This document shows, piece after piece, positions 1,077 through 42,778 of a stretch of 64,000 nucleotides of DNA. The DNA lies in IMG/VR virus record IMGVR_UViG_3300038393_002515. One strand, 5' to 3'. Below the pieces are notes generated by a model that was given only the letters and a program-made list of their open reading frames with translations, searched no databases and was not told the origin of the DNA. The stretch is from a virus. Each line of letters starts with the position of its first letter. Within the stretch, counting starts at the first letter, position 1. The translations under genes were made by a program, and so were the position numbers.

Positions 1077-1080
1077 CGCC

Positions 1081-1515
1081 ATGACCGACACCACCGCCAC
1101 CGCCACCCCCACCGCCGACGACGCCCCCGCCACCGGCCACCGCGTCACCTGGATGGACACCACCACCGGCCGCGTGTACTCCCGCGTCGTCCTCACCGAC
1201 CTGGAGGCGCTCCACATGATCGAGGCCGCCACCCTGTACGCCAACCTGGAGCCCCTCGGCTGCACCCCCGCCCCCGACTGGACCCGCTACGGCACCGGGC
1301 GCGCCCTGGCCGACGCCATCGCCGCCGGACGCGCCCGCCAGACCGCCGACCTGATCGCCGAATGGGAGCGCACCGCCCGCCCCTGGAGGCGCGCCAACAG
1401 CAACCTCACCGAGCGCCTCCAGGGCCACGCCCGCATCACCGGCGCCGCCATGCCCGACCCCGGCGACTGGGAGGCCGTCGCCGCCTACGTCACCGCCGCC
1501 CGCACCACCGCCTAG
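1081..1515 (+). CDS. hypothetical protein (144 aa)
   Basis: ATG after the conserved box, with coding-like composition. Confidence 0.65.
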   Translation: MTDTTATATPTADDAPATGHRVTWMDTTTGRVYSRVVLTDLEALHMIEAATLYANLEPLGCTPAPDWTRYGTGRALADAIAAGRARQTADLIAEWERTARPWRRANSNLTERLQGHARITGAAMPDPGDWEAVAAYVTAARTTA

Positions 1516-1529
1516 CCGCCCGCCAGCGC

Positions 1530-1543
1530 CCCCAGGAGCGCCC
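1530..1543 (+). promoter_or_regulatory. Orphan copy of CCCCAGGAGCGCCC
   Basis: Exact 14-mer at the start of the 240-nt spacer 1516-1756. A CCCGCCAGC partner lies at 1519-1527. Confidence 0.45.
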
Positions 1544-1607
1544 CGCACGCCCACACCGGGCCCGGGGCGCCCCCGACCCCCCGACGGCCCGCCAGCGCCC
1601 CGCCAGA

Positions 1608-1653
1608 CAGCGCGGAGCGCTGGCCCCCGGGACACCGTGGCGCGGAGCGCCAC
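1608..1653 (+). repeat. Two mini-hairpins with GGA loops (CAGCGC-GGA-GCGCTG at 1608-1622; GTGGCGC-GGA-GCGCCAC at 1637-1653)
   Basis: Read directly. Both embed GGAGCGC, the core of the start-associated box. Confidence 0.5.
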
Positions 1654-1756
1654 AGCCACCCGCCGCCGCGTAGCGGAGGAGCGCCGAGCCTGCGGAGCAG
1701 GCCGCGCGCCCAGGAGACACCCGACCACCCGCCCCGCCACACCAGGAGCGCGCGCC

Positions 1757-2269
1757 ATGGACTACACCCTGACCGTCACCCGGCCCGGCCAGCCCACCGA
1801 CCCCGACCCCCGCCACCACACCGACGCCACCGCCGCCCTGCTGATCACCACGGCGCTGCGCCAGGGGCTCACCCTCACCGCCGACGCCGACACCGGCCGG
1901 ATCACCCTCACCGACGACGGCCGCCGCGTCACCCTCACCCCCGCCGCGCCCCTGCCCGCCTGGACGACCGCGCAGCGCCGCGAGACGCTCGCCCTGGCCG
2001 CCAGCGACGAGCCCCTCGTGTGGCGCTACGGCCGCAGCAACGTCGCCCGCCTCGCCGACGGCCCCCGCTGGCTCACCCACTCCACCACCATGGCGCTCCT
2101 GCGCGGCGGCTACCTCACCGACCCCGCCCAGGGCGCGCCCCGCCTCACCCTGCTCGCGTACCTCACCCTCGGCACCCGCCCCAGCACCCGCCCCAAGGCC
2201 GTCCGCGACGAGGCCCTCGCCGCCATGCTCCGCAACGTCTACCGCCAGCCCACCCCCGCACCGGCCTGA
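1757..2269 (+). CDS. hypothetical protein (170 aa)
   Basis: ATG 1757 is preceded by CACCAGGAGCGCGCGCC. The upstream extension of track ORF 1637-2269 is Arg/Pro/Ala-rich and does not look coding. Confidence 0.6.
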   Translation: MDYTLTVTRPGQPTDPDPRHHTDATAALLITTALRQGLTLTADADTGRITLTDDGRRVTLTPAAPLPAWTTAQRRETLALAASDEPLVWRYGRSNVARLADGPRWLTHSTTMALLRGGYLTDPAQGAPRLTLLAYLTLGTRPSTRPKAVRDEALAAMLRNVYRQPTPAPA

Positions 2270-2358
2270 GCGCCCCGCCGCGCCCCGCCCACGACCCGGA
2301 CGGGGCGCAGCACCCCCGAACCCCCGACAGCCCGCCACACAGCCCCAGGAGCCCGCCC

Positions 2359-2685
2359 GTGCCCACCGCCCGAATCCTCATCCCCGCCGAGTACCTCGAC
2401 GCCCACCGCGCCGACCCGCACCCCGACATGCCCGCCGCCCTGCTGGCCCTCCTCGCCGACGCCGACACCATCGGCCCGGCCAGCAACCGCCGCGCCGTCG
2501 TCCACGTCCCCGCCGAACACCTGCCCGCCCTCGACGCCATCGCCCTCGCCCAGTTCACCGAGTGGGGCGACACCTACACCCGCCACCGCCGCAACATGCC
2601 CGCCGACGAGGCCGAGGCCCTGCGCCGCCTCTCCCGCGCCGCCTACCAGGTCCACCACCAGGCCCGCTACGCCGCCAACCGCTGA
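2359..2685 (+). CDS. hypothetical protein (108 aa)
   Basis: GTG 2359 is preceded by CCCCAGGAGCCCGCCC. Only the C-terminal part of track ORF 2020-2685 looks coding. Confidence 0.55.
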   Translation: MPTARILIPAEYLDAHRADPHPDMPAALLALLADADTIGPASNRRAVVHVPAEHLPALDAIALAQFTEWGDTYTRHRRNMPADEAEALRRLSRAAYQVHHQARYAANR

Positions 2686-2698
2686 CACCCGCCACACA

Positions 2699-2712
2699 CC
2701 CGAGGAGCGCCC
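2699..2712 (+). promoter_or_regulatory. Start-associated box variant CCCGAGGAGCGCCC (13/14)
   Basis: Ends 3 nt before ATG 2716. Confidence 0.5.
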
Positions 2713-2715
2713 CCG

Positions 2716-3135
2716 ATGACCCGCCCCGCCCGCCGCCCCGGCATCCACGCCAAGTGCGGCGCCACCGAACCCCGCCTCGGCTACACCCTCATGTGCGCCC
2801 GCTCCCCACAGCACATCCACAGCGCCGACCCCGAGCGCCGCAAGCACTACGACCCCGGCCACGAGGAGACGTGGACCGAGGAACGCCCCGCGCCGACCGG
2901 CATCCTGCCGCCGCCCGGCAAGACCTACGCCACCCGCCGCGTCACCGGCCGCCCCGGCTGGCACTGGGTGTACGACAGCGCCGGGAAGCTGCGCGCCATG
3001 GCCGAGCGCCGCCCCTCCTGGTGGCACCTGTACTGGGCCAGCGACGAGGAGCCCGGCGCGCACGGCGCGCCCCAGCGGTACGAGACCCTTGCCGACGGCG
3101 CCGACGCCTACACCTGCACGCCCGCCGACCAGTGA
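2716..3135 (+). CDS. hypothetical protein (139 aa)
   Basis: ATG after the box. Composition is Trp/His-rich and coding-like. Confidence 0.6.
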   Translation: MTRPARRPGIHAKCGATEPRLGYTLMCARSPQHIHSADPERRKHYDPGHEETWTEERPAPTGILPPPGKTYATRRVTGRPGWHWVYDSAGKLRAMAERRPSWWHLYWASDEEPGAHGAPQRYETLADGADAYTCTPADQ

Positions 3136-3204
3136 CCCGGAGCGCCCCGCCGACCGCCACGGCCGGGCGTAGCCTCACCCCGGGCCCGCCAGCCCGCCAA
3201 TACG

Positions 3205-3218
3205 CCCCAGGAGCAACC
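3205..3218 (+). promoter_or_regulatory. Start-associated box variant CCCCAGGAGCAACC (12/14)
   Basis: Ends 4 nt before ATG 3223. A CCCGCCAGC partner lies at 3185-3193. Confidence 0.45.
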
Positions 3219-3222
3219 CGCC

Positions 3223-3462
3223 ATGCCCCACCCCGACGACGAGACCGACGAGGAGCAGGCCCGCACCGCGCGGCTCCTGCGCATCCCGGCCGATCGGATC
3301 GCCTACTACAGCGCCGAGACCGTGTGCGCCTGGCTCCTCGCCCGCAACGAGCAGCACCGCACCCGACTGCGCGCCGCCTGCCAGGAGTTGCGGGCAGCGG
3401 CCGCCCAGGAGCGTTGCGCCCTTGCTGCGCTCTACCGCGCCACCGCCCAGGAGCGCCCCTGA
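3223..3462 (+). CDS. hypothetical protein (79 aa)
   Basis: ATG after the box. The stop overlaps the next start (TGATG). Confidence 0.6.
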   Translation: MPHPDDETDEEQARTARLLRIPADRIAYYSAETVCAWLLARNEQHRTRLRAACQELRAAAAQERCALAALYRATAQERP

Positions 3463-3773
3463 TGGCCGTCATCGACGGCCGCCAGAGCTGGCAGCGCCTG
3501 CGCCCCGCCACCCTCGCCCAGCTCGCCGCGACCATGACCGCCCCGGAGATCGCCGACATGTTCGGCGTCCCCCTGGGCACCGTCCGCTCGCGCCTCGCCG
3601 CCCACCGCATCACCGCCCGCTCCGCCCGCCCGGCAGCCAGCCCTCGGCCCGCCATCCCCCGATGCTCCGCCCCGCTCGCCCTCACCGGCGCACCCTGCGC
3701 CGCCCCGCTCGACCCCGACGGCTCGTGCCGCTGGGCTCACCAGCACACCGACCACACCGCCCAGGAGGCGTGA
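3462..3773 (+). CDS. small HTH DNA-binding protein (103 aa), sigma region-4 / LuxR-like helix-turn-helix
   Basis: The segment TAPEIADMFGVPLGTVRSRLAAHRI has the classic HTH pattern. ATG 3462 follows GCCCAGGAGCGCCC. The rest of the 403-aa track ORF 2562-3773 is compositional junk. Confidence 0.55.
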   Translation: MAVIDGRQSWQRLRPATLAQLAATMTAPEIADMFGVPLGTVRSRLAAHRITARSARPAASPRPAIPRCSAPLALTGAPCAAPLDPDGSCRWAHQHTDHTAQEA

Positions 3774-3777
3774 CCCC

Positions 3778-4167
3778 GTGAAGATCCGGATCACCCGTGC
3801 CGCCGCCGAGTTCACCGTGCGCGGCACGATCGGGCGCGGCCCGCACCTCGCCTACGGTCGCAACCTCGAACACACCATGACCGCCGAGGAGTTCACCGCC
3901 ACGGTGCGCCCCTGGGCCGACGGCGACGGCCCGGCCCGCTGGTCGGTGGCCACGCTCACCATCGAGGGCCGCGCGGTCGACGGCCGCCGCATCACCCCCG
4001 CATGGCAGGCCCGGGGGTTCTACTCCCCACTCGAAGTCCCCGACGCCGACACGCCCGCATGGTTGCTCGACCTCGCCCGCGCCTGCCTGCCCGCCCAGGA
4101 CGCGCCCGCCGTCCCCGTGCGCCCGTTCACCATCCACGCCACGACCGCCCAGGAGCAGCCCCGATGA
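3778..4167 (+). CDS. hypothetical protein (129 aa)
   Basis: GTG start 9 nt after AGGAGG. Stop and next start overlap as ATGA. Confidence 0.6.
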   Translation: MKIRITRAAAEFTVRGTIGRGPHLAYGRNLEHTMTAEEFTATVRPWADGDGPARWSVATLTIEGRAVDGRRITPAWQARGFYSPLEVPDADTPAWLLDLARACLPAQDAPAVPVRPFTIHATTAQEQPR

Positions 4168-4568
4168 ACCGCGACGACATGGCCGCCGTGCGCGCCACCG
4201 CCGACCGCCGCGAGGCCGAGTACCGCGCCCACTTCGACGGCTGCCCCGACTGCCCCGGCAGCCCGGACGGCGAGTGCGCCCGCGCCCAGGAGCTGTACCG
4301 CGCCTGGACCGCCGCCCGGGAACTCTCCACCCTCCGCTGCCAGCCCGGCCAGGACCAGCCGCAGGAGCACCCGCGCCCGCCGCACGACCTCATGGCCACC
4401 ATCGCTGCCGCCGAGACCGAACACGCCCGGCTGGTCGCCCTCCTCATCGCCGGAGGCCAGACCAAGGAGGCTGCCTGGCAAGCCGTCGACCGCCTGATCA
4501 TCGCTCTGCGCGACGCCGATGACGCTCGCGCGCTGATCGCCGCCAAGGCTCCCCGGGAGCAGCCGTGA
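4164..4568 (+). CDS. hypothetical protein (134 aa) with a CPDCPGSPDGEC motif
   Basis: ATG 4164 follows CCCAGGAGCAGCCCC. Only this part of track ORF 4002-4568 looks coding. Confidence 0.6.
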   Translation: MNRDDMAAVRATADRREAEYRAHFDGCPDCPGSPDGECARAQELYRAWTAARELSTLRCQPGQDQPQEHPRPPHDLMATIAAAETEHARLVALLIAGGQTKEAAWQAVDRLIIALRDADDARALIAAKAPREQP

Positions 4569-5005
4569 CCGTCCAGCCGCCCGCGCCGCGCCCCTGCGCC
4601 TCCTGCCCGTACCGCACCGACGTCCCGGCGGGCGTCTGGGCCGCCAGCGAGTACGCCAAGCTCGGCGCCTACGACGAGCCGACCCACCTGCAGCCCGCCG
4701 GTCTCTTCCTGTGCCACCAGACCGACCACGACGACGAGCGCGCCCGGGTGTGCTCGGGCTGGGCCGGATGCCACGACATGGACGAGAGCATGGCGCTGCG
4801 CGTCGCCGCCGTCTCCGGTGAGATCAGCGCCGAGGCCGTCCAGACGGTCCGCGACTACGTCTCGCCGGTGCCGCTGTTCGCCTCCGGCACCCAGGCCGCC
4901 GCCCACGGCATGAGCGGCATCGAGGAGCCCGGCGAGGACGCCCGGCGGGTGATTCGGAAGATCGAACGCACCCGAACCGACCTCACTACTGGCAAGGAGG
5001 GCTGA
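4565..5005 (+). CDS. Cys-rich hypothetical protein (146 aa)
   Basis: Starts at a GTGA overlap with the upstream stop. Contains CASCPYR ... LFLCHQ ... CSGWAGCH, a putative metal-binding pattern. Confidence 0.6.
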   Translation: MTVQPPAPRPCASCPYRTDVPAGVWAASEYAKLGAYDEPTHLQPAGLFLCHQTDHDDERARVCSGWAGCHDMDESMALRVAAVSGEISAEAVQTVRDYVSPVPLFASGTQAAAHGMSGIEEPGEDARRVIRKIERTRTDLTTGKEG

Positions 5006-6228: not shown

Positions 6229-6660
6229 ATGCGCACGTCCGCCACCTGCCCCGGCTGCAGGCAGTACCCCGTCACCGTCACGCCGACCGGCGCGCTGCGC
6301 GCCCACGACTCCGGCAACGGCATCCCGTGCCCCGGCAAGGGCTTCCGCCTCGACCAGCCCATCTACCCGCAGCTCATCAAGCTGTGGGGCTGGGAGACCG
6401 GCCAGAAGCTCATGAAGCAGGAGTTCCCCGAGTGGGTGTCGCCGATGGACAGCGGCCCGCACCCTATCGGCACCCTGCAGAAGCTGGTCCTCAAGGCGTA
6501 CCCCAGCGCTGACGCCTTCGGGTACACCAGCGGCCGGGGCATCACCTTCTGCGTCAGCAAGCGCTGGTACTTCGCCACGCCGGACGGCCACGTCGGCGAG
6601 AAGTACCCCACCCGCGTCGCCGCCGCCGACGCCGCCGACGAGTACCTCAAGGAGAAGTGA
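6229..6660 (+). CDS. hypothetical protein (143 aa) with an N-terminal CPxC...RAH...CP zinc-ribbon-like motif
   Basis: The motif TCPGCRQYPVTVTPTGALRAHDSGNGIPCPGKG is shared with the 13637-14227 product. Confidence 0.65.
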   Translation: MRTSATCPGCRQYPVTVTPTGALRAHDSGNGIPCPGKGFRLDQPIYPQLIKLWGWETGQKLMKQEFPEWVSPMDSGPHPIGTLQKLVLKAYPSADAFGYTSGRGITFCVSKRWYFATPDGHVGEKYPTRVAAADAADEYLKEK

Positions 6661-6662
6661 TC

Positions 6663-7019
6663 ATGGACGACAACCGCCTGCACTCCGACGAGGACCGCGA
6701 GGACCGCGAGGACGCCCTGCCCAAGTGGGCGCAGCTCAAGCTCGACCTGTACCGGCGGCGCCTCACCGACGAGCGGAAGATCAACGCCGAGCTCAGCGGT
6801 GACGTCGAGGAGAGCGACACCCTCATCCGGTGGCACGGCATCCGCGCCGACCACCTGCTGCCCCGCCGCGCCGAGATCACCTTCCTCCCCGACCTCACCC
6901 GCCCGGACCACGCGATCGACTGCACCATGCGCGACGGCGTGCTGCGCGTCCACGGCAGCAGGACCCTGGTCATCAAGCCGAGCGTGACCAACGCCCTCAC
7001 CATCGAGCTGGAGAAGTGA
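6663..7019 (+). CDS. hypothetical protein (118 aa)
   Basis: ATG lies in the conserved junction GGAGAAGTGATCATG. Confidence 0.6.
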   Translation: MDDNRLHSDEDREDREDALPKWAQLKLDLYRRRLTDERKINAELSGDVEESDTLIRWHGIRADHLLPRRAEITFLPDLTRPDHAIDCTMRDGVLRVHGSRTLVIKPSVTNALTIELEK

Positions 7020-32321: not shown

Positions 32322-32352
32322 GCCCTTGCTGTCGCTCCACCGGCGGCAGACC

Positions 32353-32363
32353 CCAAGGGCTGA
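32353..32363 (+). promoter_or_regulatory. Late motif variant CCAAGGGCTGA
   Basis: 10/11 match, 28 nt upstream of GTG 32392. Confidence 0.4.
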
Positions 32364-32391
32364 AGGAAACAGGCCGTTGAGGGAGGCGCCG

Positions 32392-35220
32392 GTGGGCGGC
32401 AAGTTCGAGCGCGGCGAGCGCCTGGAGCACCAGACGCTGGGCGTGCAGCGGCTCGCGGTGCGCTCCGAGGACTACTGGGAGTACAAGCCCGAGCAGCGCG
32501 TCCGGACGATCGACGGCGTCACCGGCGTTGTCAAGCACGTCGAGGACGGACCCTTCCCCGGTGCTGAGGAGTATCACGTCGTCCTGGACCGGGGCATGGG
32601 TGGCGGCCAGTACACCGCCTCGCAGCTCAGCCCGGCCCCCATCACCACCGAGGCCATGGAGCAGACGGCGGCCGCCGACTACCCCGAGCTCTCCCAGATC
32701 CTCGTCGAGCGCCCGGACCCGGCCCGCCAGTTCGTCACGGCGGGCAAGAACCCCTTCGCCGATGACGACAACGACGATGACTCCTCTGACGAGGGCGACG
32801 ACTCTCATGACGACTCGCAAGACGACCCACATGACGAGGACGACGACTCCGACGAGGACGACTCGGACGACGACTCCGACGACAAGGACGCTGACGGCGA
32901 CGACGCGCCTCCGTGGGCCAAGAAGGCGTCCTCCCTCTTCTCCGACCTGGTTGTGACGGCTGCCACCGATGTCGACTTCCGCTTCCACATCACGGCCGCC
33001 TGGCGCGACGTGGTGGCCAAGGCCAAGCGGATCCGTTCCGAGGGCCGCCTGCGCGTCACTCTCGCCTCCGACGGCTACGTGTTCGGCGAGGTCAAGGGTG
33101 ACCACCACGTGTACGAGACCGGCCTGCAGCGCCTGCCTGGCCGGGTGGCCGCGCACTCCTGGTCCTGCGGCTGCAAGTGGGGCGCCTACCACTGGGGCGC
33201 CGACGACGACTTCTCCCGGTTCGCCGGGCGCATGTGCTCCCACGCCCTGGCCCTGCAGTACGAGGCCCAGTCGAGGGGGATGTTCGGCCGCGACATTCAC
33301 GTGGACGAGCACAAGCCCACCTGGGTGCCCCGCAAGGTCGTCGTCCGCTACGACATCGACGCCGACACCAACCGGCTCGCGCCGTCGACCGCCCGCAAGC
33401 TCGCCTCGTGGGACGCCCCTGAACCCTCCATGTGGGACATGCATTACGGCGACGACCACGACCACGAAGCCGAGCGCCAGGCCAAGTCGGACGAGTGGGA
33501 CAGCATTCACGAGGGACTGGGGGACATCCATCGAGGCGTGAACGTCCACCTGCGCCCCGAGGATCACGCGATCGTCCACGACGAGTCCCGGCCGCTACAC
33601 GAGCGCGCCCAGCACCTGCTCAAGTCGCTCCCGCACAGCGACCTGGGCCGTGGCCGCGAGGGCCTGGGACGACACTGGACCGACAACGAGGGCGTGGCTG
33701 AGTCCTTCGGTGACATGGACGACCGCCCGAACCGGCACGGCACGCACCCGACCTCGGTCATCTTCCACGCCGAGAAGCCCGACCGGCACGCGATCGACGA
33801 GGACCCGGACCAGTCGGACGGGATGATCTACGGCTACCACGACCACGGCGAGAGCGAGATCCCGCTCCACCCTGGGGCCGGGGTGAACCTCAAGGGCATC
33901 TCCTGGAAGAACATGGACACGCCCGACGAGGACTTTCGGACCTTCAAGGGCGACGGCCTCTTCGATCACTACTGGGAGCACCAGCGTCACGACTTCCCGG
34001 GCGGCCAGCACGCCTACGCGTCGCTGAGCAAGGCCCCGTTGTCCACCGTCGCGCGCGCTGCCGTGGCGGCCGGTGAGGACAGTGCCGAGGTCGAGTTGGC
34101 CATGCGCACGGTGGGTATTCGACGGACGGCCAGCAGCTGGGACGAGTACCACGAGGACGAAAACGGCCGCCGGTACACCCTCGACGAGGACGGCGAGCCG
34201 AACTACACCTGCCACAACAAGTACTGCGACGAGGGCGGCGAGCACGGCGGCGACGGCGAGACCGCACAGCGGCACGACGACGTCTACACCGACTGGGACA
34301 CCGTTCACCCGCACCTCGGTCCGCACCTCCACCGGGGCATGGCCGTCAGCCTGCCGGACGACGTGCACGGCGTCGTCCATGACGACGGCAGGCCGGTAGA
34401 AGAGCGCGCGAGCGCGCTGGCCGACCACCTTCGCGAAGAGGGGCTCGGTACGCACTGGACCCCGAACCACGACCAGGCCAGGCACTACTCGGGCATCACC
34501 GACGGCCGGGACCGCGACACACACGTCATCCTGCACGCCCACACCCCGGCCAAGGAGCACATCGAGACCGACCCCGACGAGCTGGCCCGCCAGGACGTCA
34601 TCGCCATGGGCGACCACGACGACGCCGAGGTGCCTCTGCAGTCCGGCGCCCCGGTGAAACTGAAGGGCATTTCCTGGAGGCACCGTACCGACAAAAAGTG
34701 GACCCGGCACGACTTCCCTGGCGGCCTGCAGCACGAGGCCAACGCCAACGCGCCGTTCGGAGAGCCGTCGGGGACGTCGTACGTGCTGCCCAAGGCGCCG
34801 GGTGCGACGGCGCCGAAGAAGCCGTGGGAGAACCCGGCCTCCGCCGGGCCGCTGGCGGGCGCGGACCCGGCGGGCTGGAACCGGCAGCTGCCGCTGCAGT
34901 CGTACGCGGGCATGGACACCGCGCTGTTCGAGCCCGGCGGTACGGAGGCGACGCTGCACGACGAGCCGGAGGGGGCGCTGCCGTCCACGGACGGTGCGGT
35001 GCCGACGGACGAGGCGTCGGATCTGACGCCGTCGATGACGGCGGGTCTGAAGCGGCAGGCGCTGAAGGACTTCACCTTGGCTGAGCAGCAGGCGCTGATC
35101 AACGAGGGCGAGAACGTGCGGGCGGCGAACCTCGACCGCCTGGACATCAAGGGGACCCACTACGCCGACCTGGAGAGCGTCCTGGCGGCACAGGAGGAGG
35201 ACACCACATGGCTGGCCTGA
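32392..35220 (+). CDS. 942-aa multidomain protein: poly-acidic tract, SWIM zinc finger, two tandem ~135-aa repeat modules
   Basis: GTG 32392 follows GAGGGAGG. Has the tract DDDNDDDSSDEGDDSHDDSQDDPHDEDDDSDEDDSDDDSDDKDADGDD and a SWIM-like CGCKWGAYHW...CSHALAL. Modules carry HRG...LG.HWT.N...E(I/V)PL..GA.V.LKGISW twice. Confidence 0.7.
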   Translation: MGGKFERGERLEHQTLGVQRLAVRSEDYWEYKPEQRVRTIDGVTGVVKHVEDGPFPGAEEYHVVLDRGMGGGQYTASQLSPAPITTEAMEQTAAADYPELSQILVERPDPARQFVTAGKNPFADDDNDDDSSDEGDDSHDDSQDDPHDEDDDSDEDDSDDDSDDKDADGDDAPPWAKKASSLFSDLVVTAATDVDFRFHITAAWRDVVAKAKRIRSEGRLRVTLASDGYVFGEVKGDHHVYETGLQRLPGRVAAHSWSCGCKWGAYHWGADDDFSRFAGRMCSHALALQYEAQSRGMFGRDIHVDEHKPTWVPRKVVVRYDIDADTNRLAPSTARKLASWDAPEPSMWDMHYGDDHDHEAERQAKSDEWDSIHEGLGDIHRGVNVHLRPEDHAIVHDESRPLHERAQHLLKSLPHSDLGRGREGLGRHWTDNEGVAESFGDMDDRPNRHGTHPTSVIFHAEKPDRHAIDEDPDQSDGMIYGYHDHGESEIPLHPGAGVNLKGISWKNMDTPDEDFRTFKGDGLFDHYWEHQRHDFPGGQHAYASLSKAPLSTVARAAVAAGEDSAEVELAMRTVGIRRTASSWDEYHEDENGRRYTLDEDGEPNYTCHNKYCDEGGEHGGDGETAQRHDDVYTDWDTVHPHLGPHLHRGMAVSLPDDVHGVVHDDGRPVEERASALADHLREEGLGTHWTPNHDQARHYSGITDGRDRDTHVILHAHTPAKEHIETDPDELARQDVIAMGDHDDAEVPLQSGAPVKLKGISWRHRTDKKWTRHDFPGGLQHEANANAPFGEPSGTSYVLPKAPGATAPKKPWENPASAGPLAGADPAGWNRQLPLQSYAGMDTALFEPGGTEATLHDEPEGALPSTDGAVPTDEASDLTPSMTAGLKRQALKDFTLAEQQALINEGENVRAANLDRLDIKGTHYADLESVLAAQEEDTTWLA

Positions 35221-35642: not shown

Positions 35643-35658
35643 AAAACCGCATTTCCGT
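35642..35658 (+). repeat. 17-nt AAAAACCGCATTTCCGT, copy 2 of 2
   Basis: Exact match to 12726-12742. Confidence 0.7.
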
Positions 35659-35692
35659 CGAGCCGCCTTTCCGTTGAAGGGCGGCTCGACGG
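35655..35692. terminator. Bidirectional terminator: perfect 13-bp hairpin CCGTCGAGCCGCC / GGCGGCTCGACGG
   Basis: Sits between convergent genes (35642 + end, 35695 - end), with a 12-nt loop. Confidence 0.75.
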
Positions 35693-35694
35693 CG

Positions 35695-36267
35695 TTACAG
35701 GCCCAGCATGAAAACGGGTCCGGCAACGACGGCGCCGAGGATGGCACCGGCGATCGTCTGGGGGACGGTGTGGTCCTTGAGGTGCTGCCGAGACCAGGCC
35801 ACGAGCGGGATGAGCGCGGCGGAGAGAATCCACCAGGGGCCGTAGAGCAGGCCGAGCATGGCGAGTGCGCCCGACAGGACGGACGTGTGGAAGCTGATCT
35901 TGGTGTACTTCGTGATGGGCCACAGAAGGGCGACGGTGGCCAGCATGGCGCCGACCATGGACAGGACCGGCTTCGGGGCCCCGCCGACGACCATGAGCGT
36001 CAGGCAGGTCAGGACGGACAGGACGATGACCGGGATGACGACCATCCGGCGGGACCGCTCGGGGACGTGCCGGTCGGCGAAGGTCTTCTTCTCGCCGGTG
36101 AGGACGATGAACATGATCGGTATGACGGCGCAGAAGACTATGGCCACCGCACCCCAGCCGAGGCCGGACCAGCCGTAGTTCACGCCGACGAGCATGCACA
36201 GGACGAAGATGACGTTCTTGGGGTCGACGAAGTCGGTCAGGGCTCGTGCGGCCTGGGTGCGGGTCAC
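35695..36267 (-). CDS. PAP2-like (divergent) integral membrane protein (190 aa, ~6 TM)
   Basis: ISFHTS and WSRQHLKDHTVPQTIAGAILG resemble the PAP2 motifs PSGH and SRxxxxxHxxxD, with D replaced by Q. Overlaps the upstream gene by 4 nt. Confidence 0.55.
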   Translation of the reverse strand: MTRTQAARALTDFVDPKNVIFVLCMLVGVNYGWSGLGWGAVAIVFCAVIPIMFIVLTGEKKTFADRHVPERSRRMVVIPVIVLSVLTCLTLMVVGGAPKPVLSMVGAMLATVALLWPITKYTKISFHTSVLSGALAMLGLLYGPWWILSAALIPLVAWSRQHLKDHTVPQTIAGAILGAVVAGPVFMLGL

Positions 36268-37532
36268 GCGTGCACTCCGGTGGAAAGTCTGCGGTACATG
36301 AGCCCCAGCTGAGTCGTGTCGCGGATGGACCGGCCGACGGGGAGGAGCGTGTTCGTGGCGATGAAGGGGTCGGTGGTGCCGGTGAGAGTCGCCAGCGGCT
36401 GGATGGCCACCGGTTCGCCGTCGAACGGCTTCTCTCCGTTCCGCTTAAGCCGCATCGCTTCGCGGAGCAGGTAGGCGGCCACCGCGTGCTCCGGGAGCTT
36501 CAGCGCCCGGCCCGCAGCCCCGGCGCGGCTGTGGAGGTCCGGCGGCACGTAGTAGGCGAGGTTGAGGGCGGCATCGAGAATCTCGTTGACCCTCCTGCGA
36601 AGCCGGGTGTCCAGGTCTCGCCAGTCCCAGTACTCGCGCAGGTGGCTGGTCCGCTTGGGCCGCCGGTGTGCCGGGCAGTCGTAGATGGCGGTGGGTACCG
36701 CGTCGGTGAGGACGGCCCACAGCGGGCGCAGGTCGTTGATGGCTCCGTGGGCCTTCACTATCTCGTTCAGACGCTCCCACTTCGGGGCCGCGCCTCCGAC
36801 GACGACGAGGAGGATGCAGGTGACGAGGCAGAAGTTCGAGGTGAAGTCGACGAAGTGGTCGCCGCCGAGGAACGGTTTGTCGCACAGGCGGGTGATCAGG
36901 TACCCGGAGCGGAGGATCCCGTACGCCGAGCCGATCGAGCAGCCGAGGGCGACGACCTGCATGCCGTACTTGAAGGGGCCCGGGGCGGCGGCGCGGGCGG
37001 CGTCGAGGCACATCAGGGTCGCGCAGATCAGGCCGAAGACGAGGTAGGCGTAGAAGAGCAGGAGGTGGAGGCTGCCCCAGAGGTGGCCTGCCTGGACGAA
37101 GATGAAGTCGGCGTCGTCCTGGTTTCCCGTCCGTCGCTGGGCGAGGGGGAAGATGGCGGTGATGACGGCGATGGCGGCCCAGGTGATGATGCGTCGGGGG
37201 TTGCTGCTGATGAGCTGCCGGTAGGTGGGCTCCCGGCGGCCGTCCAACCGGCCGGGGACGACATCGGTCACCCAGTGCAGAAGGAGGGCAACGGCGGCGA
37301 TCCCCGTGAGGTGCTTGGCGAGGGTGGCGATGTCGTCCACGCCGGTGAGGTGGTAGAGGAAGTCCCCGACCGCCTGGATCTTGGTGACCATCGAGATGTC
37401 GAGGGCCAGGAAGACCATAAAGAGGGTCCGGGAGCGGGGGTTGCGGTAGGCGGCGGGTCCCCTGCGGATGACTTCCTCAGTGAGGAGGACGACGACGATC
37501 CAGGCGGGAAGATCGGAAGGTGTGGCGGGCAC
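36264..37532 (-). CDS. 422-aa polytopic membrane protein with a soluble C-terminal domain; resembles the actinobacterial MAB_1171c-type family as far as I recall
   Basis: About 8 hydrophobic segments in the N-terminal 250 aa. The C-terminal region reads LRPLWAVLTDAVP...LDTRLRRRVNEILDAALNL. The family assignment is from memory and unverified. Confidence 0.6.
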   Translation of the reverse strand: MPATPSDLPAWIVVVLLTEEVIRRGPAAYRNPRSRTLFMVFLALDISMVTKIQAVGDFLYHLTGVDDIATLAKHLTGIAAVALLLHWVTDVVPGRLDGRREPTYRQLISSNPRRIITWAAIAVITAIFPLAQRRTGNQDDADFIFVQAGHLWGSLHLLLFYAYLVFGLICATLMCLDAARAAAPGPFKYGMQVVALGCSIGSAYGILRSGYLITRLCDKPFLGGDHFVDFTSNFCLVTCILLVVVGGAAPKWERLNEIVKAHGAINDLRPLWAVLTDAVPTAIYDCPAHRRPKRTSHLREYWDWRDLDTRLRRRVNEILDAALNLAYYVPPDLHSRAGAAGRALKLPEHAVAAYLLREAMRLKRNGEKPFDGEPVAIQPLATLTGTTDPFIATNTLLPVGRSIRDTTQLGLMYRRLSTGVHA

Positions 37533-37545
37533 CGGTTCTCATCTC

Positions 37546-38157
37546 TCAGGTGTCGAGACTTGCTCTCATGTTGTTTTCGAGGAGGGTTGCCCCACGGGGG
37601 GCGTGCTTGGCCATCCAGGTCTCGGCGTAGTACCCGAAGTCCTCGGCTTTGCGTTCGCGGTCCTCGTTGCTGGTGCCGTCGGCGCGGCACTGGACGCCAG
37701 CGGCCGCGAGGGAGTCTGACAGGAGGGCCGCCGATCCGCTGCACACCCCCCTCAGGAGGCGGAGGACGGCGGCGAGGTCGAGCCGGTTGGGCTCGTCTCC
37801 GTTGACCATGTGACCAAGCTCGTGACCGAGGACGTGGTGGTACTGCACAGGCGGGATCGTGGGGTGGGCCCACACCAGGTCGGCGTCCGGGGTGGGGTAC
37901 CACATGCCGCTCGGCCCGTTCGGTGAGGTCATCCGGGAGTCGCGGCTCAGGATGAGCTTGCGGCCGCGTACCTGCTCTACATAAGCGCGCAGCAGGTCCT
38001 CAACGGTCCAGGGAGACGTGGGAAGCGCCAGTCCCGTCAGCGCCTGCCCCCAGGTCCCCTTCAGGCCGCTCCGGTTCCGCATCAGTCCCATCCAAGCCCC
38101 CAGTTGATCACTAAGGCCGCCATTTACGCCACTCAGCGTAAGGCAAGGGGCTGACAA
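37546..38157 (-). CDS. ImmA/IrrE-family zinc metallopeptidase (203 aa; alternative ATG start at 38091)
   Basis: HExxH in the typical context YHHVLGHELGHMVNGDEP. Immediately downstream of an XRE HTH gene. Confidence 0.8.
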   Translation of the reverse strand: MSAPCLTLSGVNGGLSDQLGAWMGLMRNRSGLKGTWGQALTGLALPTSPWTVEDLLRAYVEQVRGRKLILSRDSRMTSPNGPSGMWYPTPDADLVWAHPTIPPVQYHHVLGHELGHMVNGDEPNRLDLAAVLRLLRGVCSGSAALLSDSLAAAGVQCRADGTSNEDRERKAEDFGYYAETWMAKHAPRGATLLENNMRASLDT

Positions 38158-38162
38158 TGGCC

Positions 38163-38738
38163 CTACCCGGTCTGGTCCTCCTGGGCCCCCTGTAGGCCGA
38201 GCAGCGCGAGACGCAGGATGGCTCTTGCCTGCCCGGAGTCCGCCCCGTCGAGCCCTCGGAAGAGGGCGCCCATCAACGCCGTGCCCTGGGTACTCTCATC
38301 GCTACCCTCCGTAGTGCTGTCGAGCTTCTGGATGGCCTTGGCCGCTTGCACGCCGAGCTCGATGAGTTCCACTTCGCGCTCGATCTGTCTGGTTCTCTCC
38401 GTGGCGTCGGTGCCGACGCGCCAGTAGTCCGTCTCGACCCCGAAGAACAGACTGAGCGCCTCGATGATGCTGAACGGCGGGTTCGTCCGCTTGCCGTCCT
38501 TCAGGTCGCTCAGGTACTGGCGGTTGACGGCGTCGGACTCTGCTCGAATCATCTCGCACGCCTGTGCGATTTCCTCCATACTGGCACCGGCGTCCTGGAG
38601 CTCCTGGGTCACCCGCGAAATCTTCTTGTCGCGGTACAACCCTGAGGCCCTCGCGGCGATCTCACTCAACGGGTACGTCTGCCCGTCCGGTCCGCGCTTG
38701 AGGTCACGCAACTTGCGGAACTTCTCACCGAGCGGCAT
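38163..38738 (-). CDS. XRE-family helix-turn-helix transcriptional regulator (191 aa)
   Basis: The N-terminus is LGEKFRKLRDL...YPLSEIAARASG...LSDLKDGKRTNPPFSIIEALSLFFGVETDYW, a Cro/C1-type HTH. The C-terminal domain is extended. Confidence 0.8.
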   Translation of the reverse strand: MPLGEKFRKLRDLKRGPDGQTYPLSEIAARASGLYRDKKISRVTQELQDAGASMEEIAQACEMIRAESDAVNRQYLSDLKDGKRTNPPFSIIEALSLFFGVETDYWRVGTDATERTRQIEREVELIELGVQAAKAIQKLDSTTEGSDESTQGTALMGALFRGLDGADSGQARAILRLALLGLQGAQEDQTG

Positions 38739-38788
38739 GGCCTCCCCCCTCCGTGTGTCTAGTTGAAAAAAGTCGGCCCATGGAGGCG

Positions 38789-38794
38789 ATCCTA
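38789..38794 (-). promoter_or_regulatory. -10-like TAGGAT on the minus strand upstream of the XRE gene
   Basis: The reverse complement of ATCCTA at 38789-38794 lies about 50 nt upstream of the start at 38738. No good -35 was seen. Confidence 0.3.
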
Positions 38795-38854
38795 GCGCCG
38801 CCGTAAGGATTCATGACACCGGGAACCCGGAAACGAGCTGAAGCGTCAGAAAAG

Positions 38855-38885
38855 TTGACACCAGCACCACTTGGCGTCATACGAT
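38855..38885 (+). promoter_or_regulatory. sigma-70-like promoter TTGACA (38855-38860) - 19 nt - TACGAT (38880-38885)
   Basis: Perfect -35 hexamer and a TAnnnT -10. The spacer is slightly long. Points toward 39037-39342. Confidence 0.4.
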
Positions 38886-39000
38886 CAGCTCAACAAACTG
38901 ACAGACCGCGAACTGACGGGGGTGACGGGGCATGGGCGCAGCGCCGACAACCGCACCGATCCCCTTCTCGTGGATCCTGTCCGGGCGCACCTGTACGTCG

Positions 39001-39013
39001 GCAAGGGGCGAAG
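39001..39013 (+). promoter_or_regulatory. Late motif variant GCAAGGGGCGAAG
   Basis: Resembles the 47690 copy (CCAAGGGGCGAAGG). Lies 23 nt upstream of GTG 39037. Confidence 0.35.
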
Positions 39014-39036
39014 AGTCCCCGGCCCGAGGAGACAAG

Positions 39037-39342
39037 GTGCTCACGCCCCCAGCCATCATCCGGACGATCGTCCCCTCGATCGTCGGCTTCATCCTGGCGT
39101 TCCTCGCCTCGCACAACATCCATGTCAGTGCCGAGGTCGAGACGTACCTGACCGGCCTGCTGACCGTGGGTCTCGGCGGCGTCTACTACGTCGTCGCCTC
39201 TGCTCTGCAGTCGCGCTGGCCGCTCGCGGGCCTGCTCCTCGGCTCCACCGCTCGGCCGACCTACACGGGACGGCACCGCCTGACCAGCGCCACCGATCCG
39301 ACGACCGCCACGTCGGATCCCACTCCGGAAGACCGGCCGTAG
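39037..39342 (+). CDS. small membrane protein (101 aa, 2 TM), holin-like topology
   Basis: GTG 39037 follows GAGGAGA. Hydrophobic segments are IIRTIVPSIVGFILAFLA and YLTGLLTVGLGGVYYVVASAL. The N-terminal part of the track ORF does not look coding. Confidence 0.55.
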   Translation: MLTPPAIIRTIVPSIVGFILAFLASHNIHVSAEVETYLTGLLTVGLGGVYYVVASALQSRWPLAGLLLGSTARPTYTGRHRLTSATDPTTATSDPTPEDRP

Positions 39343-39374
39343 ACCGCCATCTACCGCTGACGAAGACCGGAGCC

Positions 39375-39421
39375 GAGCCCCGGCCGACCCACTTCCTCGC
39401 CAGGAAGGTCGGCCGGGGCTC
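39375..39421 (+). terminator. Perfect 15-bp hairpin GAGCCCCGGCCGACC / GGTCGGCCGGGGCTC
   Basis: 17-nt loop, followed by TCTGTATTG. Confidence 0.7.
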
Positions 39422-39478
39422 TCTGTATTGCCGGTCTGCGGGCGTCACGTTCTTCAACGACGCTTCGGGTGAACGGTA

Positions 39479-39509
39479 GCGACAAACTCTTAATAAGTCT
39501 ATTTGTCGC
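39479..39509. repeat. 8-bp inverted repeat GCGACAAA / TTTGTCGC around the AT-rich 15-mer CTCTTAATAAGTCTA
   Basis: This is the most AT-rich spot I noticed in the window. It lies in the 320-nt non-coding leader before the head-gene block. Confidence 0.6.
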
Positions 39510-39684
39510 CAAAGCGAGGTTCACGCCTCCGCTTCGGCAACAAACCGGTCGCCCAACCTGAATTGTGCCTCAACCCTTGGCCACAGGTTCCCCCTTCACG
39601 AGGCCTATACAACTCCGTATCGAACCCGTTGCCGCCAACGCCCTCCTGCCCGCCCAGCGCACGAGACCTCCTGTTCGTCACACC

Positions 39685-39708
39685 CCCTCCGCCCCCAAGG
39701 AGCGAGGG
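39685..39708 (+). promoter_or_regulatory. Late motif variant CCAAGGAGCGA (39695-39705) in a 5-bp CCCTC/GAGGG hairpin
   Basis: Degenerate copy, 40 nt upstream of GTG 39746. Confidence 0.3.
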
Positions 39709-39745
39709 CGCACCATGCGCCGCCGCCCGCACAGGAGGACCCGGT

Positions 39746-42700
39746 GTGCTGAAGTTCGCCACGGCCCAGATCATCGCCGCGTCGCTCGGCGACCAACAGC
39801 GCATCACCAGGGCGGCCCACCGCGCGGTCTTCCAGTACGAAGCGCGCCCCGGCTTCTTGTACGTACGCAGCAGGGCCATCAGTTCACGCTGCAACGACAA
39901 CTTCGACGAGTTCCCCGCCGAAGAGATCGAAAAGTCGTACAAGACCTTCGTCGGCAAGCCGGTCTTCGTGAACCACGTCAACGACAACCACCGGCGCGCC
40001 CGGGGCGTCATCATCGACGCCGCCCTCCACCGAGACCGCAACCCCGACGGCACGCCGGACACATGGGCCGAAGTCCTCATGGAAATCGACGCCGTCCGGT
40101 TCCCGAAGCTGGCCAAGGCGATCCTCGCCGGACACATCGACCGGACCTCCATGGGCTGCGACGTCGAGCGCTCCGTGTGCTCCGCCTGCGGCAACGAGGC
40201 CCGCACGCCCACCGAGTACTGCTCCCACATCCCGCACCTGAAGGGCAAGCGCATCTTCCGCGCCACCGCCAGCGGGAAGAAGGTCGGCGAGCTCGTCCGC
40301 GAGACCTGCTTCGGCCTCCGGTTCTTCGAGAACAGCGTGCTCGTCGAGCCCCCGGCGGACCCGACTGCTCATTTCCTCGGCGTGGACTCTTCCGGCCTCG
40401 GCAAGGCCGCCTCGAAGAGCGCCGCGATCGACTACTCCGCCTTCGAGGACAACGACGACCTGGAGGCGGACGACGACGGCGAGGACACCGCGCCTCAGCC
40501 GAAGCCCGCCTACCCGGCCTCGCACGCCAAGTCGCCGGTGCCGCATGTCCCGTTCGAGGGCACCACGCACGACCACCAGCGCCGCCAGGACGCGGTGCAG
40601 CACGCCCGGCCCTTCACGCCGCTCAAGCCGAGCCTCAACGGCCTGCAGGCGACGGCGGCCGCGAAGAAGCCCGCGCCCAAGGCGGCCGAGCCCGAGGTGG
40701 ACGAGTACGGCACCCCGAAGCCGAAGCGAGGCCAGCCGTACGAGCCTGCGGGAGACCACCCCTGGTACAAGCAGGTCCCGCTGCACCACTCCAACATCGT
40801 CGACCACTGGGACAAGGCCACCGACGAGGAGAAGGACTCGGGCATGCGCTGGTACAGCGACGCCCACCACGTCGCCAAGGCCATCGCCCGCCTCGACCCG
40901 CGCATCAAGACCGACGAGGAGGCCGCCCACAAGGGCGCCGGTGTCCTGTCGGCCTACAGCCCGCGCACCAACTGGCCGCAGAACATGTTCAACGCGGCCC
41001 ACTCCTTCCACCGCCAGGCCGCCGTCCGCCCTCTCAAGGACGACCCGGACAAGCCCGCCCACGTCACCACCATGGGTATGCACGCCGACAAGGCGCAGCG
41101 CATCATGGACGGCGAGCACCACCAGCCGGTCCTGAACTCGCCCAAGACGCAGGACTTCGCCCACCTCATCGAGCACGGCGGCTACGAGCCGCAGACCGAG
41201 GAGGAGAAGAAGTCCGGTGCCGAACGGCGGCACAGCGGCCGCGTGGTCATCGACCGCCACGCGCTGTCCGTGGCGGCCGGGCGCCGGATCACCGACGTCG
41301 AGAACGACGCCCACCAGGGCTTCCCCGGCGCCTCCAGCGGCAAGCACGCACGGCACTACTACGAGCACGCCGCCAACACCTACCGCAACGCGGCCGCCGC
41401 CATCTCCGAGAAGGAGGGCAAGCCGGTCGCCGCGCACCAGGTGCAGGCGGTGACCTGGCTGGTGCGCCAACGGCTCAACACCGCCGAGGACCAGGCCAAC
41501 GCGAACGCCAGCGCGAAGAACCTGGGCGCGGGCCGCAACAAGGCCGAGGAGAACATCAAGGGCCACTGGAAGGACTTCGCGGGCGAGCACACGCCGGAGC
41601 TGAAGGAAAAGGGCAACTCCCACGTGGCCAGGCTCATTGACGCCACGTACATCAACGACGACGGCACGATCCGCGCCATCGCGTACGGGGAGATCAAGGC
41701 ACCGGCCGACGTCGACACGCTCCGCGAGGAGAACTGCCCGGTCTGCGGCGACAAGGACACCTTCGACGGTATCCAGTGCCAGATCTGCGGGTTCATCAAC
41801 CCGCCCGAGCAGTTCCGTGACCCCGACCTCGACAAGGCCAAGACCCTCGACCTGCGCAAGCAGATCGTCGACCCCAGCCTCGTCGACGACAACGGCGAGC
41901 TGCAGCGTGTCAACGACGACGGCACCGGCATGCCGCAGGAAGACGGCATGCCTGGCGACGAGGAACAGCAGCTGGGCCCCGACGGTCAGCCGCTCGACGA
42001 GGACGGCCCGCAGATGGTCGACCCCGAGCAGCTCGACGAGAACGGCCTGCCGCCCTCCCCGTGGGGCGACCAGACCCTCGACGGCACGATGCAGGGTGCC
42101 CCGACCTTCTCCGACCGCAACGGCGACGGCATGATCCAGCCGGACGAGATCGACCCCGACGGCAACGTCAACGTCCAGCAGAACATGATGGTCGACCCCG
42201 AGCAGGGCGGCCAGGCAGGCCCGCGCGAGCTGCCCGGCCGCGCCAGGGACCGCACGGGCGACCCGTTCACCCCCGGCCCCGACATGCCCCGCCTCCAGGG
42301 CCCCGAAGGACCGGAAGACGGACTGGACGACGAAGACACCTTCCAGGCCGGTCCCGGCATGGGAGCTCCGCAGGAGCCGATCCTGGCGCACCCCGGCGAC
42401 TACACCGGCGACGAGAGCGAGACGCCGCACTGGTCCTGGAACAGGGACGTGGACGAGGAACCCCAGGCGCCCAACGAGGACGAGGACCCGCAAGACCCGC
42501 GTCGCCGACGCCTTGGGATGTCGGCGGCCCCGCGCACCCCGAAGGACGGACAGCCGAACGACGGCGCGCCCGACCTGAGCTGCCCCCACTGCGGATTCGG
42601 AGCGGACGCCACCGCCCCGCAGACCCAGGACATGGGCAACCCGCAAGGCGCGACCGACGGCATCGTCGCCGGAGACGTCTGCCCGAACTGCCGCAAGGCC

Positions 42701-42778
42701 CAGCTGCTCACCCCCGCCGAGCTGCAGGGCGAGTCTTCCGTCCCTCCGCCTGCTGTCCCGCAGCTGTCCCGGAGCTGA
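39746..42778 (+). CDS. 1010-aa fusion protein: N-terminal prohead-protease-like domain, central helical domain of unknown function, Asp/Pro/Gly-rich region and two C-terminal zinc ribbons
   Basis: GTG 39746 follows AGGAGGA. The N-terminal domain reads FVNHVNDNHRRARGVIIDA...IDRTSMGCDVERSVCSACGNEARTPTEYCSHIPH, which recalls T4 gp21-type prohead proteases. Also carries CPVCGDKDTFDGIQCQICG and CPHCGF...CPNCRKAQ. Confidence 0.6.
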   Translation: MLKFATAQIIAASLGDQQRITRAAHRAVFQYEARPGFLYVRSRAISSRCNDNFDEFPAEEIEKSYKTFVGKPVFVNHVNDNHRRARGVIIDAALHRDRNPDGTPDTWAEVLMEIDAVRFPKLAKAILAGHIDRTSMGCDVERSVCSACGNEARTPTEYCSHIPHLKGKRIFRATASGKKVGELVRETCFGLRFFENSVLVEPPADPTAHFLGVDSSGLGKAASKSAAIDYSAFEDNDDLEADDDGEDTAPQPKPAYPASHAKSPVPHVPFEGTTHDHQRRQDAVQHARPFTPLKPSLNGLQATAAAKKPAPKAAEPEVDEYGTPKPKRGQPYEPAGDHPWYKQVPLHHSNIVDHWDKATDEEKDSGMRWYSDAHHVAKAIARLDPRIKTDEEAAHKGAGVLSAYSPRTNWPQNMFNAAHSFHRQAAVRPLKDDPDKPAHVTTMGMHADKAQRIMDGEHHQPVLNSPKTQDFAHLIEHGGYEPQTEEEKKSGAERRHSGRVVIDRHALSVAAGRRITDVENDAHQGFPGASSGKHARHYYEHAANTYRNAAAAISEKEGKPVAAHQVQAVTWLVRQRLNTAEDQANANASAKNLGAGRNKAEENIKGHWKDFAGEHTPELKEKGNSHVARLIDATYINDDGTIRAIAYGEIKAPADVDTLREENCPVCGDKDTFDGIQCQICGFINPPEQFRDPDLDKAKTLDLRKQIVDPSLVDDNGELQRVNDDGTGMPQEDGMPGDEEQQLGPDGQPLDEDGPQMVDPEQLDENGLPPSPWGDQTLDGTMQGAPTFSDRNGDGMIQPDEIDPDGNVNVQQNMMVDPEQGGQAGPRELPGRARDRTGDPFTPGPDMPRLQGPEGPEDGLDDEDTFQAGPGMGAPQEPILAHPGDYTGDESETPHWSWNRDVDEEPQAPNEDEDPQDPRRRRLGMSAAPRTPKDGQPNDGAPDLSCPHCGFGADATAPQTQDMGNPQGATDGIVAGDVCPNCRKAQLLTPAELQGESSVPPPAVPQLSRS

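Follow-up and report, generated by a model that had tools for sequence, protein, structure and literature searches.

A minus-strand island of a Streptomyces phage-plasmid is one copy of a widespread actinobacterial operon combining an EspR-type regulator, an ImmA/IrrE-like protease and a 7-TM membrane protein

What is the role of four genes lying on the minus strand of a viral genome in which nearly all other credible genes, as judged by frame analysis of the G+C content at third codon positions (GC3), are found on the plus strand? This question is raised by IMG/VR virus record IMGVR_UViG_3300038393_002515, of which a stretch of 64,000 nucleotides (the window) was analyzed, and by an island of genes located there between 35695 and 38738. 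On the basis of its letters, the island had been proposed to be a repressor/protease switch driving two membrane effectors, with a role either in defence or in lysogeny and lysis timing (the sequence-only reading). The island is one copy of a widespread, so far uncharacterised actinobacterial operon. With a probability of roughly 40%, we read it as a membrane-coupled repressor/protease switch which would control polyprenyl-phosphate enzymes and would be expressed by the prophage. The four cassette genes, their control region and the divergent gene, in which TM stands for transmembrane and HTH for helix-turn-helix, are the following:

38738 to 38163, minus strand: regulator, 191 aa, XRE-type HTH protein of the EspR family (HTH)
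38157 to 37546, minus strand: predicted zinc metalloprotease with a HELGH motif, 203 aa as the longest frame, revised to 38091 to 37546 and ~181 aa (MP)
37532 to 36264, minus strand: 422-aa membrane protein of the MAB_1171c family/DUF6545 (MAB)
36267 to 35695, minus strand: 190-aa multi-TM protein resembling PAP2-superfamily phosphatases, with a 4-nt overlap with the upstream gene (PAP)
38739 to 39036: divergent control region between the cassette and the 2-TM gene
39037 to 39342, plus strand: 101-aa 2-TM gene, divergent from the cassette, belonging to the phage backbone (phrog_10742)

That these genes form a module is supported by its recurrence far from this phage. A locus scan using a four-sequence alignment as query, with one genome per species, returned 77 loci, and hidden Markov models (HMMs) of the four cassette proteins were run on these loci plus plasmid and phage loci, 81 in total. 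When linkage is defined as a position within 1.5 kb on the same strand, the protease gene adjoins the membrane protein gene in 66 loci and lies 5 kb upstream in eight more; an EspR-like gene is present in 49 of the 81 and a PAP2 gene is found directly downstream in 16. Homologues of the 422-aa protein thus co-occur with HTH and protease genes in non-phage loci. In dozens of loci that are otherwise unrelated, the genes are found in this order and on one strand. The membrane genes are therefore not morons that merely happen to accompany an ordinary immunity cassette; they travel with the regulators, and the treatment of the four genes as one unit by the sequence-only reading has been borne out. 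Two gene orders occur, HTH-MP-MAB(-PAP) and MAB-HTH-MP, and the arrangements are distributed as follows:

HTH-MP-MAB-PAP: 16 loci
HTH-MP-MAB: 16 loci
MAB-HTH-MP: 17 loci
MP-MAB: 17 loci
MAB alone: 15 loci, of which at least 8 (Amycolatopsis) have a protease gene 5 kb upstream

In Amycolatopsis, a polyketide synthase (PKS)/epimerase pair is inserted between the protease and membrane protein genes (loci L036, L042 and L050). The module has been found in Streptomyces, Kitasatospora, Streptantibioticus, Amycolatopsis, Nocardia, Micromonospora, Actinoplanes and Haloechinothrix, together with a metagenome-assembled genome (MAG) of the Ktedonobacterales. Its non-phage contexts include a 437-kb linear plasmid, where it stands among TetR, major facilitator superfamily (MFS) and PKS genes, and a MOBF plasmid; on the chromosomes of Streptomyces and Amycolatopsis its synteny is conserved. 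One chromosomal clade (L023, L048, L053, L059 and others) always has a TetR-like gene upstream of the module, together with a flanking convergent gene for a ~1170-aa PKS-like protein and an NAD-epimerase gene, the pair which is inserted into the module in Amycolatopsis. A second, unrelated phage lineage carries it as well: Streptomyces phage Gilgamesh encodes it as gp98-101 (31% identical), adjoining ParA, and 125-130-kb circular plasmids related to Gilgamesh carry it too. The island could be a self-contained, autoregulated operon captured by temperate phage-plasmids, a view that we hold at somewhat less than even odds. In the literature on DUF6545, on MAB_1171c, on COG2856 with Streptomyces and on EspR paralogues with proteases, the module is nowhere described.

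The constant partner of the protease is the 422-aa membrane protein, which exceeds the curated cut-offs of both NCBIfam NF042915, the MAB_1171c family (135.8 bits, cut-off 100), and Pfam DUF6545 (68.5 bits, cut-off 24.4). Its AlphaFold model (pLDDT 85, pTM 0.75) contains seven TM helices and, taken with hydropathy and the distribution of Lys and Arg in the loops, places the N-terminus outside and the C-terminal third inside. The sequence-only reading had counted about eight TM segments followed by a soluble C-terminal domain; the domain stands, as the helical and predicted cytoplasmic DUF6545 domain (~residues 250-422), and the helix count is corrected to seven. When public sequences are clustered at 50% identity, the family amounts to at least 728 clusters, and K73, Y204 and R208, all located in TM helices, are invariant across distant members. 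An exact look-up of the JGI version of the 422-aa protein gave no record. In Mycobacterium abscessus, transposon mutants of MAB_1171c have lowered minimum inhibitory concentrations of cefoxitin and clarithromycin and form about half as much biofilm (PMC8707978).

The name 'putative transporter' given by NCBIfam to this family would suggest that the protein is, for instance, a polyprenyl-phosphate flippase or exporter working with the PAP2 enzyme, the regulator and protease merely providing transcriptional control. The three invariant intramembrane residues would suit this proposal, as would the PAP2 fusions described below, which could represent an enzyme-translocase pair in lipid-carrier recycling. 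A transporter fold is nevertheless unsupported: Foldseek against the PDB returned no significant fold match for the model, with only weak resemblance to 7-TM bundles and 7-TM receptors, and a profile search of PDB sequences with the family matched no solved transporter, so that the label gains neither fold nor sequence support here. Such a function would also fail to explain why the cytoplasmic domain is large and conserved and why the gene is so strictly linked to a single protease subfamily, and we regard it as quite improbable. Somewhat better resemblance to the 7-TM bundle than that of the receptors was found in BFVD, where the Gordonia phages Rabbitrun, Sephiroth and Bantam have membrane proteins of 220-260 aa which stand alone and are devoid of DUF6545 (target TM-score 0.58-0.74, E 4e-4 to 0.03).

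The second component is encoded by a gene whose start had to be revised. Between TTG 38157 and ATG 38091, the 22 codons have a GC3 of only ~50%, and protease homologues are 148-192 aa long (n=36); the start was therefore moved to ATG 38091 (or 38082), giving a protein of ~181 aa instead of the 203 aa given by the sequence-only reading, whose identification of a HELGH metallopeptidase is retained. This stretch (37546-38091) encodes a predicted soluble zinc metalloprotease of a divergent ImmA/IrrE (COG2856)-like family. Indeed, H90, E91, H94, R136, E146 and E150 are invariant in 19 distant relatives (15-51% identity), in agreement with an HExxH motif and a downstream Glu following the pattern of a third zinc ligand. 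Pfam Peptidase_M78 (PF06114) is matched by 13 of these 19 relatives at E<=1 (best 4e-5), and one homologue is labelled 'ImmA/IrrE family metallo-endopeptidase' by PGAP. The subfamily has no precomputed Pfam match and was encountered nowhere except beside MAB_1171c genes, pointing to protease and membrane protein as dedicated partners. Considering this strict family pairing and the cytoplasmic DUF6545 domain, a physical partnership is likely, in which the 7-TM protein would act as sensor or licensing factor of the protease.

The regulator belongs to the EspR family, in agreement with the XRE-type HTH identity first assigned to it. When 13 family members are combined into a profile, the match to the EspR structures extends over the full length (EspR residues 3-133, E 1.3e-31), and HTH_3 is matched by 11 of 13 relatives; taken alone, the window regulator has EspR as its best PDB match, over the HTH part only (E 2e-4). 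Homology to EspR (Rv3849) of Mycobacterium tuberculosis covers the N-terminal HTH and the C-terminal dimerisation domain. In contrast to EspR (132 aa), the window regulator has 191 aa, with an insertion of ~35 aa within the HTH region which, according to the alignment, only the phage-plasmid clade carries. As a regulator, EspR acts on its own gene and on cell-wall functions (PMC3315491). The neighbourhood of mycobacterial espR differs from that of the module, with a GDT1-family protein and a DUF6474 protein in place of a protease and a 7-TM protein. The protease, MAB and PAP2 HMMs gave no match at this locus (Rv3848-espR-Rv3850) in M. tuberculosis and M. kansasii, which rules out the idea that Rv3848 and Rv3850 are a membrane protein and a protease.

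Pairs of XRE-type regulators and COG2856 proteases controlling a third component are established, ImmR/ImmA being an example (PMC2701414). The module is a variation on this theme, in which the repressor is of EspR type, the protease divergent and the 7-TM partner constant. As in ImmR/ImmA of ICEBs1, DdrO/IrrE and CapH/CapP, the gene of an XRE-type repressor stands beside that of a small HExxH gluzincin in one operon on a mobile element, and a third component depends on the pair. The module departs from these switches in that its protease forms a divergent subfamily whose window member is missed by Pfam Peptidase_M78, its repressor is EspR-like with a C-terminal dimerisation domain, and its constant third partner is the 7-TM DUF6545 protein, neither an integrase nor a defence effector being present. 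The known inputs of ImmA/IrrE-type switches are DNA damage, zinc and cell-cell signals; here, the trigger need not be DNA damage.

What the switch might control is suggested by the last gene of the operon. The 190-aa protein is probably a divergent PAP2 phosphatase-like enzyme acting as polyprenyl-diphosphate phosphatase. The PAP2-like nature first attributed to it has been borne out in its family, 8 of 9 members matching Pfam PAP2 (best E 8.8e-8), and the homologue on the 437-kb linear plasmid is named 'phosphatase PAP2 family protein' by PGAP; the profile of the family gave nothing useful against PDB sequences. Ten residues are invariant (H67, R71, R74, K123, S125, H127, R160, H166, T167 and Q170), including C2-like K123-x-S125-x-H127 and C3-like S159-R160-x5-H166 motifs. 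The tie between this protein and the 7-TM protein is further illustrated by gene fusions. A 687-aa MAB-PAP2 fusion is encoded outside Actinomycetota, in the Ktedonobacterales (Chloroflexota) MAG (L079 5467-7530), where it is preceded by an EspR-like gene and a HELAH protease gene, and further fusions of MAB_1171c-like 7-TM/DUF6545 proteins to PAP2 occur in representatives P0342, P0281 and P0315. Among 150 representatives, only PAP2 fusions were found and none joined the protease or the HTH to the membrane protein.

A gene for lipid-carrier synthesis is also part of the operon in another phage lineage. In Gilgamesh and two related 125-130-kb circular plasmids, uppS directly follows the PAP2 gene on the same strand (L091 10866-11585 and L092 5374-6093 in the plasmids). 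The Gilgamesh gene, gp102 (L001 6879-7598), has been deposited as hypothetical; it matches Pfam Prenyltransf at 8e-48, identifying the polyprenyl diphosphate synthase UppS, and is the final gene of the cassette operon, just before ParA. The product of UppS is polyprenyl diphosphate. As it adjoins uppS, the PAP2 enzyme would most simply be a diphosphate phosphatase yielding the lipid carrier. Gene context thus ties the operon to cell-wall lipid-carrier metabolism.

The preferred mechanism, a membrane-coupled switch, can be outlined as follows. The EspR-type repressor, bound to the back-to-back promoter region, would shut its own operon and probably also the divergent 2-TM gene. The membrane protein would register an envelope or lipid-carrier signal, upon which the protease, cooperating with or licensed by the cytoplasmic domain of the 7-TM protein, would destroy the repressor. 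The output would be more 7-TM protein and more PAP2 enzyme, the latter converting polyprenyl diphosphate into polyprenyl phosphate, the cell-wall lipid carrier; PAP2 would be an optional component, and UppS would have been added to the operon in another phage lineage. Such a mechanism is reminiscent of BlaR1/BlaI (MecR1/MecI), where a sensor embedded in the membrane acts together with a zinc protease that inactivates the repressor, and of BcrR-bcrABD, in which a membrane-tied XRE-type regulator controls an undecaprenyl-diphosphate phosphatase upon exposure to a lipid-carrier antibiotic. Both are functional analogies only, since sensor, protease and repressor are here three polypeptides without sequence relation to these systems.

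Several observations weigh against this mechanism. PAP2 is absent from 3 of the 6 members examined of the phage-plasmid family to which the window belongs, and therefore cannot be the sole output. Being the only non-regulatory gene product in the PAP2-less versions, the 7-TM protein may be the effector and not the sensor. The 190-aa protein of the window scores 18.7 bits against Pfam PAP2 (PF01569), under the cut-off of 27.2, and lacks the canonical C1 motif (KxxxxxxRP), H67, R71 and R74 being invariant instead. As for the protease, it has no match to PF06114, its best Pfam match being M48 (E 0.013), and the Foldseek matches of its model (pLDDT 77), headed by PrpR (6cyy), IrrE (3dti, 3dte) and PprI (8sln), are below significance, with E of only 0.04-0.1 and TM-scores of 0.33-0.39.

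An effector role of the 7-TM protein where PAP2 is absent would also suit an abortive-infection, superinfection-exclusion or three-component toxin-antitoxin-like module, in which the XRE regulator and the protease would hold a toxic or excluding membrane effector, namely the 7-TM protein with or without PAP2, off until infection or damage. XRE-COG2856 pairs do regulate toxins and defence operons, for instance CapH/CapP and predicted three-component toxin-antitoxin systems (PMC2701414), the module is carried on phage-plasmids and plasmids, and one copy lies beside a MazF toxin and another beside CRISPR-Cas. However, when PADLOC was run on the proteins of the island, it returned only a weak capH match (19 bits, E 4.9e-4), with nothing for the other four proteins, the protease and both membrane proteins included, and no effector. 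Furthermore, the chromosomal synteny is stable in whole clades, unlike that of defence islands, the operon partners are biosynthetic (PAP2, UppS) instead of toxins, and the phenotype of the M. abscessus mutant is related to the envelope and to antibiotics (PMC8707978). The defence role put forward by the sequence-only reading is thus unsupported, and we consider it unlikely.

If the membrane-coupled mechanism is extended to the whole family, MAB_1171c/DUF6545 proteins might constitute a new class of 7-TM sensors, or polyprenyl-phosphate sensing translocases, signalling via a dedicated ImmA/IrrE-type protease which would destroy an EspR-type repressor. This three-component actinomycete route would govern lipid-carrier supply and would have been captured at least two times by temperate phage-plasmids to reprogramme the host envelope. 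This generalization is rather doubtful. If true, it would give a testable function to a family now known only as 'putative transporter' or DUF6545, and a membrane-derived input would be a new kind of trigger for ImmA/IrrE-type switches. Large Streptomyces phage-plasmids would then carry regulated lipid-carrier genes (PAP2, UppS), and these could change how antibiotic-producing bacteria tolerate antibiotics or which phage receptors they display.

The element carrying the island can itself be placed. Homologues of the 422-aa protein were found on ~150-157-kb contigs in many Streptomyces assemblies, and the window is a member of the family of pRLB1-9.1 (NZ_CP041653), which consists of ~150-157-kb circular Streptomyces phage-plasmids. 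pRLB1-9.1 is deposited as a complete circular 'plasmid' of 154,158 bp; its annotation includes an HK97 capsid protein, baseplate J, DnaE, DnaB, ParA and tyrosine recombinases, with almost all genes on one strand, and a 156-kb family member is listed by IMG/VR as a viral genome. The window is colinear with pRLB1-9.1, neighbouring proteins being 62-86% identical and open reading frame (ORF) sizes matching across the record start. Published papers citing pRLB1-9.1 handle it as an ordinary plasmid, and 'plasmids' of this type would represent a common, hitherto unrecognised phage-plasmid family. Two family contigs, of ~304 and ~310 kb, are possibly assembly dimers. The extrachromosomal lifestyle, with ParA, explains why no integrase stands beside the island, as the sequence-only reading had correctly observed.

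Within this family, the cassette occupies the same position in 6/6 members examined. Identity among members is 41-60% for MAB, 29-58% for HTH and 62-86% for the head protease, so that cassette divergence tracks core-gene divergence and is larger. As first noted, the island is the sole opposite-strand block of the window (a minus-strand ORF at 6363-6953, overlapping plus-strand ORFs, is ambiguous in the GC3 frame analysis). The complete relative pRLB1-9.1 has three more minus-strand islands outside the homologous stretch: parA within the tail-gene block, a 414-aa HTH gene facing the replication genes across ~1 kb, and an accessory region with recombinases and a cluster for a ribosomally synthesized and post-translationally modified peptide (RiPP). 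This last region (66.6-77.2 kb, minus strand) contains two tyrosine recombinases, an ATP-grasp RiPP pair (tgmA/MvdC-like) and an XRE + DUF397 pair.

The control region and the boundaries of the island contain the following elements:

38789 to 38794, minus strand: -10-like TAGGAT of the cassette, conserved in relatives
~38764 to 38773: T-run in the 5' untranslated region of the cassette, conserved in relatives
38855 to 38860 and 38880 to 38885, plus strand: promoter-like TTGACA, N19 and TACGAT for the 2-TM gene
35655 to 35692: hairpin between the convergent ends of a plus-strand 144-aa gene and the cassette, 17-nt arms, 94% complementary
39375 to 39421, plus strand: hairpin after the 2-TM gene, 15-nt perfect arms, terminator-like, without T-tract

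The blocks of the control region are kept in six relatives, at cassette protein identities of only 29-73%, and are predicted to function as promoters. Each of the three conserved blocks occurs once in the 64-kb window, without recurrence, and a phage-wide operator is thus ruled out within 64 kb. The 2-TM gene, whose product matches phrog_10742 (E 1e-11), is found at the same place in all phage-plasmid relatives and is absent from the non-phage module copies examined; it is a phage backbone gene which the regulator might target locally.

This arrangement bears on whether the cassette is the lysogeny/induction switch of the phage, with an EspR-like immunity repressor, the protease as anti-repressor, the 7-TM protein feeding in an envelope or extracellular signal, and the divergent plus-strand promoter leading into the head genes. 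Besides following the ImmR/ImmA paradigm (PMC2701414), such a function would account for the position on the opposite strand directly upstream of the head module, conserved in all six family members together with back-to-back promoters. It would also account for the HTH evolving faster than any other component (29-58% identity, compared with 62-86% for the neighbouring head protease), a pattern typical of immunity specificity. Against it, the module is autonomous in many non-phage loci, and between the 2-TM gene and the head operon there is a strong hairpin. Since, in addition, the promoter blocks are unique in the 64 kb and the 414-aa HTH gene of pRLB1-9.1, divergent from the replication genes, has the more classical position of a repressor locus, a master lysogeny or lysis-timing switch, the other role envisaged by the sequence-only reading, is not favoured and appears improbable.

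Regarding the boundaries, the hairpin at 35655-35692 reaches -35 kcal/mol on both strands (z -6.6 and -7.0), with 0/200 shuffles as stable, and looks like a bidirectional terminator. The second hairpin, at 39375-39421, reaches -42.8 kcal/mol (z -5.5). In a genome of 68% G+C, an AT-rich palindrome at 39479-39509 (GCGACAAA...TTTGTCGC) is found just ahead of the head-gene operon; as an RNA structure it is not significant (z -1.4), and it is possibly a protein-binding or promoter element. The HTH-protease spacer contains no significant RNA structure. The four minus-strand ORFs, the divergent 2-TM gene and the two strong hairpins of the sequence-only reading have all been recovered; its third bounding element, the AT-rich repeat, exists without being structurally significant. 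Similarly, its 13-nt gap and 4-nt overlap between cassette genes hold, and the 5-nt gap between the HTH and protease genes becomes 71 nt with the revised start. Returning to the membrane-coupled switch, the cassette would be transcribed from its own promoter in the direction opposite to the lytic genes, be insulated by terminators and alter host envelope physiology in the prophage state.

All four cassette ORFs have a coding-type GC3 of 0.82-0.93. No near-identical phage DNA turned up when the island was compared by megablast with 50,697 phage records. The flanking genes agree with the first placement of the island between lysis/virion genes and the prohead protease/capsid block: portal, tail spike and endolysin lie upstream, and a prohead protease fusion and the major capsid protein lie downstream. 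This fusion, of 1091 aa (window 39503-42778), combines a prohead protease domain (phrog_18299) with DUF7178, and its pRLB1-9.1 homologue bears the PGAP label 'ParB/RepB/Spo0J family partition protein', which looks misleading for a head-maturation protein. Directly upstream of the island, a 964-aa protein (window 32326-35220) is marked by long acidic Asp/Glu/Ser runs, a C-terminal module present in duplicate and a stretch resembling a SWIM zinc finger (CxCxnCxH); it matches only function-unknown PHROGs. Finally, positions 1-5000 of the window have a G+C content of 75-79% and a strongly negative GC skew (-0.16 to -0.33), the remaining window having ~64-74% G+C.

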